A DNA stretch of 64,000 nt from a bacterium (GTDB taxonomy: Bacteria; Patescibacteriota; Minisyncoccia; Phycocordibacterales; UBA9973). The stretch's first letter is position 1; the number at the start of each line of letters is the position of its first letter. The DNA is taken from the NCBI GenBank assembly GCA_037143195.1, contig JBAWZD010000001.1, forward strand, positions 355,733 to 419,732, read 5' to 3'. This document shows positions 29,159-39,545 of the stretch, one piece after another. The notes below the pieces were generated by a model. It was not told the origin of the DNA. It did no database searches and was given only the letters and a program-made list of their open reading frames with translations. Made by a program: the position numbers and the translations under genes.

Positions 29159-29488
29159 TTAATTTAGTTTGCTTTTCAAAAAAGCTATGCCATTTTGCTT
29201 GCCCTCAAGAGTTGTAGCGTACACATCATAATACACCTCTGTTGAAAGAACATCTTCTCCTTTTTTATTCCATTCTTCAACACGCGCATCAAGCCAAGTT
29301 TGTAAATCGTCCTCAGTAAAAGCTTTTTTAAAGTGATCAACGAAATATTCATATGAGGCGCAGATGTACACGCTAGAGTATTTGCTACCATGATCAGACA
29401 ATAAGCGCAGGATTGTCCAATATACATCCCTGTGAGTATCTTCTCTTAGTTTACTATTCTCGATTCTCATAATTTTATTATACCACAC
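29159..29488 (-). CDS. hypothetical protein, last gene of the R-M/defense operon
   Basis: 109 aa. Its start overlaps the stop of the DUF3800-like gene. Confidence 0.5.
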   Translation of the reverse strand: MWYNKIMRIENSKLREDTHRDVYWTILRLLSDHGSKYSSVYICASYEYFVDHFKKAFTEDDLQTWLDARVEEWNKKGEDVLSTEVYYDVYATTLEGKQNGIAFLKSKLN

Positions 29489-30290
29489 TGATTAGTCTTC
29501 TAAATTTTGCTTTTATTCTGTCGGTGCTTTCTTTTATTGAAGGTGATAATGTTCTTTTAGGGTAAACATTGAAACCTTTTCCTAAAATTGTATTAAGATC
29601 GGTATCATCTGATTTCCAAAAATTATCCTTTATGATGGGTAGAAAATTATACGCCATCTCCTTCATACTATACTGAATTGCACCTAATACTACGTCGTTA
29701 ATTTGATGAATCTGACTATATTCATTACTGATTTGAACGACAGGATAAATAATATAACGCAGATCAGAATAATCTATTCCATTAGCATAGGCAGAAAAAC
29801 AATGTCCGGTCATGTGGGAAGTAAACGCTTGCTCAAAGCAATCTGATATAACCATACCATTTTCTCTTATTGATTCGAGGTACTGATTAAATTTATGCAG
29901 ACAAACATTCATTCCATATTTTGTTGTCTGTAATTGGCGAGATTTATTTATTCTAAATTTAATAATCATATCCACGAAACTCATATCGTGATAGAAGTCA
30001 TGTGGTGCAAGATAAACAATAATTTTGCATTTTGACTTACTCACCATTTCTAGAATACGTTGTTTAAATTCTGCATGAATAGTAGCATCTAATATTCCTT
30101 CTCCATTCCAATTGTTATTTGTCCATTTTATTGGACGCTCATGTTTTATTCCATAATGACTTTTTAGTTTCAGTACCTTCTTACAAAGAGGGGCAAGTTC
30201 TTTTTCATCTACAATAATTCCACCATAAATGAAGAATTCGAATTTGTCGTCACTGGTTATATTGGACTCATCAGTAATAAGGAATTTCAT
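29478..30290 (-). CDS. DUF3800-like protein
   Basis: 270 aa. N-terminus MKFLITDESNITSDDKFEFFIYGGIIV matches the M..IDESG.. start characteristic of DUF3800. Sits 14 nt downstream of hsdR. Confidence 0.5.
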   Translation of the reverse strand: MKFLITDESNITSDDKFEFFIYGGIIVDEKELAPLCKKVLKLKSHYGIKHERPIKWTNNNWNGEGILDATIHAEFKQRILEMVSKSKCKIIVYLAPHDFYHDMSFVDMIIKFRINKSRQLQTTKYGMNVCLHKFNQYLESIRENGMVISDCFEQAFTSHMTGHCFSAYANGIDYSDLRYIIYPVVQISNEYSQIHQINDVVLGAIQYSMKEMAYNFLPIIKDNFWKSDDTDLNTILGKGFNVYPKRTLSPSIKESTDRIKAKFRRLISVV

Positions 30291-30304
30291 CTGTTAGTCA
30301 GTAT

Positions 30305-36639: not shown

Positions 36640-38394
36640 TTATAGTTGCTTAAGTAAACCAAGCAGTTCGTTTTCAATCTTTTCAATATCTGTTTCTATT
36701 GCTTCTAAACTGCGGGGTGCTTCGTATTTATAGAAGTATCGTGTGAATGGAATTTCGTATCCAACAATTCCAACCTTACCATCTTTATGATCCGTGACAG
36801 TTTCATTTATCCAAGCATCTGAGACATACGGCTTTACTTCACGATCGAAGTATTCTTTGATATCCATCTCGTATGGAACGTTTTCATAATCGCGCAAAGA
36901 TTTATCTATCTCGATTTCTCCTTTTTTATTTTTTACAATTTTTCCATCGACAACAAGTGGTCGCTCGATAGTGATCTGTCTGTATGCAAAATCAGTTGTT
37001 TTGAAAATCTTTGAGAATTCATTTTCTTCAAACTTCCCGTACAATTCCACTATTTTCTTTTTTGATTCTGTATCAATTTCGTGACGCTTACTTCCCAAGC
37101 TCTTACGTGTCTTTTTGAAAAAAGCTCGAGCGTCTATAAGCTGAACTTTACCTTTTCGTTCAGCTGACTTTCTATTGGTTACAAACCATAAATAGGTATT
37201 GATACCTGTGTTATAAAAAAGCTGATCAGGCAGAGCAACGATTGCTTCGAGTAAGTCCTTTTCCAATATCCATCTACGGATTTCGCTCTCACCGCTTCCG
37301 GCATCTCCGGTGAATAGAGGTGAACCATTATGAACAATGGCTATGCGCGAACCGCCATCCTTTTCCGGCTTCATCTTTGATATGAGGTGTTGCAGGAATA
37401 GTAATTGTCCATCAGAAATGCGAGGTGTCCCAGCGCCAAATCTTCCAGCGTATCCACGTGATGCTTCACGTTCAACAGCATCCTTATCTTTTTTCCAGTC
37501 AACTCCGTATGGAGGATTTGAGAGTCCGTAGTCAAACACTTCTCCGAAGAATTGATCGTTAGCGAGTGTACTTGCCTTTGAATGGTCTTTTTCTCCGCCA
37601 CGAATTAGGTCAGGATCATCTCCTTTGATAAGCATGTCGGACTTTGCCATAGCATATGTAACTGAGTTAAGTTCCTGCCCATACAAAAAAATGTCTGCTT
37701 CTTTGTTTATATTTTCGAGAATGTAATCCTTTGCAACACTAAGCATTCCACCGGTACCGCAAGCTGGATCATATATTTTCTTGATGACGTGCGGCTTTTT
37801 GAGGTCTTTGATATCGGGCGAGAAGAGGAGTTCTGTCATGAGCCCAATAACGTCACGTGGCGTATAGTGTTCTCCAGCGGTTTCATTGGACATTTCAGAA
37901 AACTTGCGGAGAAGCTCTTCAAACACATGTCCCATTTGATAGTTATCTACCGCTGATGGATGTAGGTCTACTTTGTTGAGTTCCTGCATGACCAAGAACA
38001 ACAAGTCGCCACCCTCTAGTCGCTCGAGCTGTTTACTAAAATCAAATTTTTCGAATATGTCTTGGATATTTTTGCTGTATCCATTGATGTATTGCTTGAA
38101 ATTCTTTGCAAGATGCTTCGGATCGCCCATGAGTGTCTTAAAGTCGTAGTCCGAGATATTATAAAAAGCTGTTCCAGATGTTTTCTTGAGAATTGGATCG
38201 AGGTCGTTTACTTTTCCTTTGTACTCGTTGTATTTCTCAAGCACTTTCGACTTTGTATCTATGAGTATCGAATCGAGTCGTTTCAAGACGACAAGTGGGA
38301 GTATCACATCTTGATACTCATGCTGTTTCCATCCACCGCGCAATATATCGGCGATGTTCCAGATCATTGAAGTTTTTTGGTTGAAGTTTTCCAT
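36640..38394 (-). CDS. hsdM: Type I restriction-modification N6-adenine DNA methyltransferase subunit
   Basis: 584 aa. N-terminal HsdM_N. SAM motif I DPACGTGGML. Catalytic motif IV LSNPPYGVDW. Confidence 0.95.
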   Translation of the reverse strand: MENFNQKTSMIWNIADILRGGWKQHEYQDVILPLVVLKRLDSILIDTKSKVLEKYNEYKGKVNDLDPILKKTSGTAFYNISDYDFKTLMGDPKHLAKNFKQYINGYSKNIQDIFEKFDFSKQLERLEGGDLLFLVMQELNKVDLHPSAVDNYQMGHVFEELLRKFSEMSNETAGEHYTPRDVIGLMTELLFSPDIKDLKKPHVIKKIYDPACGTGGMLSVAKDYILENINKEADIFLYGQELNSVTYAMAKSDMLIKGDDPDLIRGGEKDHSKASTLANDQFFGEVFDYGLSNPPYGVDWKKDKDAVEREASRGYAGRFGAGTPRISDGQLLFLQHLISKMKPEKDGGSRIAIVHNGSPLFTGDAGSGESEIRRWILEKDLLEAIVALPDQLFYNTGINTYLWFVTNRKSAERKGKVQLIDARAFFKKTRKSLGSKRHEIDTESKKKIVELYGKFEENEFSKIFKTTDFAYRQITIERPLVVDGKIVKNKKGEIEIDKSLRDYENVPYEMDIKEYFDREVKPYVSDAWINETVTDHKDGKVGIVGYEIPFTRYFYKYEAPRSLEAIETDIEKIENELLGLLKQL

Positions 38395-38408
38395 GTGTGT
38401 TTTTATTG

Positions 38409-39545
38409 TTACCTAGTAAATAGAGCAAGATACTCAGTCAGATAAAAGATGCGGTCTTTCTTGAGTCCTGTCTTTTCGGAAAACAAACCGAGCTTTTCAA
38501 AATCTTTAGCAATCGCAGACGCCGTTGGGAATGTAACTGATAGCATTGATTCGATATCACGAATCGTAACCACTGGTTGTGAGAATAGATGCTTGAGAAG
38601 TTCTTTGCCAAGCTTTTGACGCTTGATACCCATACCTTTTTCGATGGTGGTTTCGTATTTTTTGCGCAAGTCGATTATTTTCTCTAACGTCTGTCTGGAA
38701 TCCTTTGCAGTTTCCAATACCCCTGTAAGAAAGAAGCGTATCCAATGTTCGATGTCATTCGACTCGCGCACACGTGAAAGACCATCGTAATATTGCGTAC
38801 GATGCTTTTCGAAGAAGTCGGAAATGTAGAGAGTTGGTTTTTGCAGTATACCCAAGCTCACCAAATGTAAGGCGATCATCAAGCGACCAGTACGACCATT
38901 ACCATCCAAGAATGGGTGGATAGTTTCAAACTGGTAATGCGATATTGCTATCTTGATAAGGTCAGGTATATCTGTCTCTTTGTTGTGCCAGAATTTTTCA
39001 AGGTCACTAAGCAATTCTGCAATTTCTTCGTGATGTGGAGGAATGAATACTGCATCTTTAAGCGTCGCACCACCGATCCAGTTTTGACTGTGGCGAATTT
39101 CTCCGGGCAATTTTGTGTATCCTCGAACACTTGAAAGAAGCACCTTGTGTGTATTTTTCACAAGTCGCATTGAAAGTGGAAGTGTTTCAAGTTCTGAAAT
39201 TGAGTAGTTGATTGCTTTGACATAATTCTGCACTTCTTCCCAGTCGTTTCTTTTTTCTGGATTGATTTCAAGCTCAGGCAAGAGTGCTTCATCGAGTCGT
39301 GTATTAGTTCCTTCGATTTTGCTCGAAACAGTAGCTTCCTTTGCGATGTGCATTTTTATGAAAAAGTCCACGTCTGGTATAAGCTTGGAGAAGGCGTTGA
39401 GTTCACCAAGGTATCGCATTGCATCGGAAAGGAGCAGATCAATTCTTTTGTCTGTCCACTCAAATGTCTTATTCACGGGATTCGGCTGAAAGCTCTTGTA
39501 GCCCTCCTGTTGCCTATATGTTCCTGCCTTGTATTTGTCTGCCAT
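38409..39545 (-). CDS. Fic/DOC family protein (AMPylator-type), first gene of the hsd operon
   Basis: Canonical Fic motif [15 protein letters not shown]-terminal winged-helix-like region. Sits 14 nt upstream of hsdM. Confidence 0.9.

Follow-up and report, generated by a model that had tools for sequence, protein, structure and literature searches.

Defence genes nested in Type I restriction operons

Embedded genes are common in Type I restriction-modification (R-M) operons, and in the tested cases they act independently (Payne, Hughes, Fineran & Jackson 2024, 'guilt by embedding'). When Hma, BREX, DISARM and Type I R-M are taken together, 96.7% of embedded genes share the orientation of the flanking system, and a backup-defence rationale for them has already been proposed (Payne et al. 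2024). The paradigm of such a latent backup is PrrC, which is released by an anti-restriction peptide and is found embedded almost only in Type I R-M (Payne et al. 2024). In C. jejuni, rloA and rloB lie inside the hsd island, rloA-rloH being known embedded genes, and the V. cholerae genes tgvAB, located within a Type I operon, work independently of that operon. Class 1 OLD nucleases are defined as single genes not adjoining other defence genes. They defend on their own; Vc OLD (Vibrio cholerae) nicks phage DNA, and P2 Old cuts tRNA anticodon stems. PARIS senses the anti-restriction protein Ocr, and DUF3800 genes are known near structured ncRNAs.

The operon described here lies in a window of 64,000 nucleotides, the whole stretch of DNA that was analysed. 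Like the catalogued embedded-gene loci, it carries extra co-oriented genes between hsd genes, and the occupants of such loci include ABC-ATPase nucleases and Fic-like proteins. Its Fic and DUF3800 proteins match PADLOC PDC-S04 and PDC-M04A, two of the PDC candidate models that Payne et al. (2024) contributed to PADLOC, and its OLD ATPase matches the HEC-01A models. Unlike earlier embedded-gene loci, it unites four separate cassettes on one operon, and it encodes OLD as a full-length class 1-type fusion, in contrast to the split ATPase and Toprim of HEC-01 or the GmrSD-type TgvAB. No description of this exact gene order was found in the literature searched. The locus clearly adds a new case of defence genes lodged within restriction operons; as the nesting pattern is already catalogued, it is not a new kind of system.

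Architecture of the operon and its island

The operon occupies the minus strand from 39545 to 29159 and consists of eight co-directional ORFs, preceded by a candidate promoter.

39552-39592, minus strand: candidate operon promoter, two overlapping sigma-70-like matches just upstream of fic
38409-39545, minus strand: class II Fic AMPylase of the SoFic type, 378 aa, opening the operon (Fic_N + Fic)
36640-38394, minus strand: HsdM, Type I methyltransferase subunit, 584 aa
36393-36635, minus strand: 80-aa protein whose C-terminal part forms a single transmembrane helix by hydropathy (about residues 56-78)
35147-36391, minus strand: HsdS specificity subunit, 414 aa, two target-recognition domains (Methylase_S)
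33276-35150, minus strand: OLD-family nuclease, 624 aa, a fusion of N-terminal ABC ATPase and C-terminal Toprim
30305-33271, minus strand: HsdR restriction/translocase subunit, 988 aa (HSDR_N, SWI2_SNF2, ResIII, T1R_D3-like)
29478-30290, minus strand: DUF3800 protein, 270 aa, RNase H2/H3-like fold (DUF3800 24.5 bits, gathering score 21)
29159-29470, minus strand: conserved 103-aa protein paired with the DUF3800 gene (a GTG start at 29488 would give 109 aa)

Recomputed from coordinates and sequence, the junctions range from -11 to +14 nt. They measure +14 from Fic to HsdM, +4 from HsdM to the small ORF with its ATG at 36635 (an alternative TTG start gives 97 aa and overlaps hsdM), +1 from the small ORF to HsdS, -4 (ATGA) from HsdS to OLD, +4 from OLD to HsdR, and +14 from HsdR to DUF3800. 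The last junction is -11 with the GTG at 29488 and +7 with the ATG at 29470; gene callers on identical contigs choose the ATG. Eight tightly spaced ORFs on one strand had been proposed by an earlier sequence-only reading, and its coordinates prove exact. Its further proposal, that the extra modules are interleaved within the hsd genes, holds for the small ORF and OLD; Fic and the DUF3800 gene with its partner instead flank the hsd genes, since Fic comes first and the pair last. The spacing, together with the lack of convincing internal terminators, suggests that all eight genes are co-transcribed. The promoter matches (10/12 and 9/12) refer to the sigma-70 consensus only, which may not be the host's type.

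A motif search of the translations found the catalytic motifs intact throughout the operon. The sequence-only reading was also correct in recognizing a complete Type I R-M system. HsdM matches HsdM_N + N6_Mtase (1.6e-60) and PADLOC MTase_I (9e-251), with DPACGTG at 209 and NPPY at 293. HsdS matches PADLOC Specificity_I (3e-93), its two target-recognition stretches spanning 10-210 and 219-412. HsdR matches TIGR00348 at 7.5e-60, its 203 bits lying under the model's curated cut-off of 284.55, and features D140...E154-L-K156, GSGKS at 309 and DEAH at 413; its closest solved structure is EcoR124I HsdR, a weak match (1e-13).

The Fic protein is homologous end to end to Shewanella SoFic (PADLOC SoFic 2e-116; PDB entries 3zcn/9tcl, 2e-36 over residues 12-377). 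Like this single-gene defence, it has the active-site motif, starting at H210, and the class II inhibitory motif S74-SKIEG (SSKIEG). It scores 179 bits against an NCBIfam equivalog cut-off of 550, and is thus a member of the SoFic family, not an ortholog. Unlike the SoFic system, fic here heads an hsd operon, and no AS1-like small antitoxin gene follows it, only the short gap to hsdM. The 80-aa membrane protein matched no family in the searches made, PADLOC's among them, and only three short homologs (43-59% identity) were found among 1.84 billion representatives. The DUF3800 protein resembles the DUF3800 modules of retron type VII and Cas12a2-associated loci in its RNase H2-like fold, DE...QxxD motifs and defence-island context. 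In contrast to those modules, it has no reverse transcriptase or Cas gene beside it, and it is paired with a conserved protein of about 105 aa.

The operon is part of a larger mobile block, whose other components are listed below.

25509-39949, no strand assigned: mobile island carrying the operon, about 14.4 kb, block common with contig L168
25514-25830, plus strand: tRNA-Asn(GUU) at the island edge, exons placed by the intact tRNA-Asn of L168
25770-27554, minus strand: large serine recombinase of the island (Resolvase + Zn_ribbon_recom + Recombinase)
27897-28655, minus strand: 252-aa ORF between recombinase and LOOT, called in all island copies
28738-28861, plus strand: LOOT small RNA (Rfam RF03000), of the island and not the operon, full-length match scoring 93.1 bits (gathering score 46.4)

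The mobility of the block is evident from its comparison with L168, in which the same block (97.6% identity) lies between unrelated flanks on both sides; Logan contig L169 ends its match exactly at 25509. Lying beside tRNA-Asn, the serine-recombinase island carries the whole operon block as cargo. A group I intron about 244 nt long interrupts the anticodon loop of this tRNA (Rfam Intron_gpI at 25538-25784, 49.7 bits with a gathering score of 50, E 1e-11). The 252-aa ORF had no match in family searches. LOOT leads into a terminator-like hairpin at 28858-28873. LOOT RNA co-occurs with the serine recombinase more than with DUF3800.

A class 1-like OLD nuclease at the hsdS-hsdR junction

HMMs and fold place the 624-aa protein firmly in the OLD-nuclease family, where it is class 1-like. 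It matches AAA_15 (5e-17) and AAA_21 as well as PADLOC Old (3.5e-26); OLD-like_TOPRIM is sub-threshold in this copy and matched by 31 of 33 family members. The protein retains the family's invariant catalytic residues; its motifs are Walker A G34-VNETGKS, QRSDGF at 309, LLDEPE at 339, H373, and E437/D441 and D491-S-D493 in the Toprim domain. In Foldseek, its AF2 model (pLDDT 86.8) aligns over the full length with GajA (8sm3, 3e-15), the best structural match, and TsOLD (6p74, 8e-13), at 10-15% identity to solved OLDs in the structural alignments. With class 1 OLDs (P2 Old, Thermus scotoductus OLD, Vc OLD) it shares the single ABC ATPase and Toprim polypeptide, the conserved catalytic residues, the full-length TsOLD fold and orthologs that are isolated genes; no dedicated partner gene, helicase or reverse transcriptase stands beside it at the locus. 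Unlike the class 1 definition, this copy resides inside an hsd operon.

An identity with PARIS (AriA/AriB, class 4 OLD) was considered and rejected. The ABC ATPase and Toprim logic is common to both, and the ATPase half matches PADLOC AriA end to end (8.8e-20). However, the Toprim is of the OLD type, a DUF4435/AriB domain is matched by none of the 33 members, and PADLOC Old is the top model in all 33, scoring above AriA and AriAB each time. Of the earlier label 'OLD/PARIS-like', only the assignment to the OLD/AAA_15-Toprim family therefore stands.

The OLD gene does sit, as the sequence-only reading had it, at the hsdS-hsdR junction, the position of prrC. Like EcoprrI-PrrC and RloC, it is an ABC-ATPase-containing nuclease encoded at this junction of a Type I operon; unlike PrrC, its C-terminal effector is a Toprim and not an anticodon-nuclease domain, and its family is mostly stand-alone. 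The order hsdS-OLD-hsdR recurs in the three closest OLD relatives, L081, L082 and L083 (47-71% identity), which also carry closely related Hsd subunits. Stand-alone genes without hsd nearby account for about 20 orthologs at 35-48% identity; orthologs at 43-48%, with no hsd genes within 8-10 kb, occur singly in genomes of Marinifilum, Aquimarina and Aliarcobacter and on many metagenome contigs. Their length and invariant catalytic residues are unchanged compared to the embedded copies, in which no extra domain or insertion was found. In a distance tree with weakly resolved deep nodes, the L083 OLD falls outside the clade of this operon's OLD, so capture may have occurred more than once, or escapes may be frequent. 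Across ABC-ATPase nuclease loci, an HsdM match lies within 10 kb in 15 of 47 genome loci, and more distant relatives made many separate entries into Type I operons. Homologs of the island's serine recombinase adjoin OLD genes in several other loci, and OLD genes are often carried as cargo beside serine recombinases.

Modular history and proposed function

The sequence-only reading took the operon for one integrated system, which is contradicted for most of its parts. Besides the stand-alone OLDs, the DUF3800 pair exists apart from hsd genes: in L183/L184, a 111-aa ORF directly after a DUF3800 homolog is 42% identical (E 4e-27) to the 103-aa partner, and hsd genes are absent. The hsdM-hsdS slot is variable, as L082 and L083 hold AntA or KilA-N genes there instead of the small membrane protein, and Fic is missing in L083. 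A mosaic history is also visible in composition, with GC3 of 0.39-0.43 in fic, hsdM and hsdR and 0.15-0.26 in the small ORF (0.148), hsdS, OLD and DUF3800. Between the island copies here and in L168, fic is 84.7% and hsdR 97.2% identical, whereas identity is 99.9-100% for OLD (99.9%), hsdS, the small ORF, the 103-aa ORF and the recombinase. Purifying selection is indicated by the fic alleles, whose codons show 140 synonymous and 18 non-synonymous differences. On this evidence the Fic gene, the small ORF and the two genes of the DUF3800 cassette appear to be independent mobile cargo, as does OLD in part.

We consider it probable that the operon stacks autonomous defence modules that are co-transcribed and co-transferred with Type I R-M. 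Two observations point the other way: hsdS-OLD-hsdR has persisted in a lineage where identity has fallen to about 60% for HsdR and 47% for OLD, as might be expected under selection for a functional link, and the repeated entry of ATPase nucleases into Type I operons hints at a context-specific benefit. Such a link might take the form of a restriction guard, as the sequence-only reading suggested and as Payne et al. (2024) had already raised in general form for embedded ABC ATPases. The assembled R-M enzyme would hold OLD latent, as EcoprrI does PrrC, until an Ocr-, Stp- or DarA-like phage protein disables R-M and OLD fires as an abortive-infection nuclease. The slot shared with prrC (4-nt overlap and 4-nt gap), the order conserved alongside related Hsd subunits, the recurrence of ABC-ATPase nucleases in hsd operons and the sensing of anti-restriction proteins by related ABC-ATPase/Toprim systems (PARIS/Ocr) are in keeping with it, and the anticodon-stem cleavage by P2 Old strengthens the functional parallel between OLD and PrrC. 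We nevertheless judge it unlikely. Because about 20 orthologs have no nearby hsd genes, OLD latency cannot rest on Hsd proteins across the family; the embedded copies have gained no domain or insertion, the L083 OLD branches elsewhere in the weakly resolved tree, and Vc OLD defends independently of host-complex perturbation.

Less probable still is that the extra genes chiefly stabilise the island, with Fic and OLD as addiction toxins and the small ORFs as antidotes, without an anti-phage role. The block is a mobile island in two genomic backgrounds, OLD genes often travel beside serine recombinases, and SoFic is toxic, with a small antitoxin, in E. coli. Yet the anti-phage activity of SoFic, class 1 OLD and Type I R-M has been demonstrated experimentally in other hosts, Fic has its own N-terminal inhibitory helix motif and no small ORF before hsdM, and addiction and defence are not mutually exclusive. 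Gabija combines the OLD nuclease GajA with the SF1 helicase GajB. By analogy, OLD might be an accessory subunit using HsdR, an SF2 translocase, as its motor, which we regard as very improbable. The gene lies 4 nt upstream of hsdR, GajA is the top structural match, and the operon of L173, which combines a 44% OLD ortholog, a UvrD-like helicase and hsdMSR, shows that such genes can be interleaved. Against this, the window contains no UvrD/GajB-type helicase, stand-alone orthologs lack any helicase neighbour, HsdR is of a different helicase superfamily and already has its own PD-(D/E)xK nuclease, and there is no known case of OLD working with HsdR.

We return to the stack of autonomous cassettes, in which the main cargo of the island is one long operon built on the complete hsdM, hsdS and hsdR system, with at least four cassettes nested in or appended to it. 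These are the SoFic-type Fic at the 5' end, the tail-anchored membrane protein in the hsdM-hsdS slot, the class 1-type OLD in the hsdS-hsdR slot, and the RNase H-like DUF3800 protein with its 103-aa partner at the 3' end. A single promoter upstream of fic would drive all genes, so that the cassettes would be co-expressed and co-transferred with R-M. The R-M enzyme would form the first line, methylating self DNA and cutting unmodified incoming DNA. OLD would work alone as an ATP-driven Toprim nuclease, Fic may be an abortive-infection toxin acting via AMPylation, and the DUF3800 pair may add a further nuclease layer. If this is true, nesting would provide layered, complementary immunity and genetic linkage, rather than a single multi-subunit machine.

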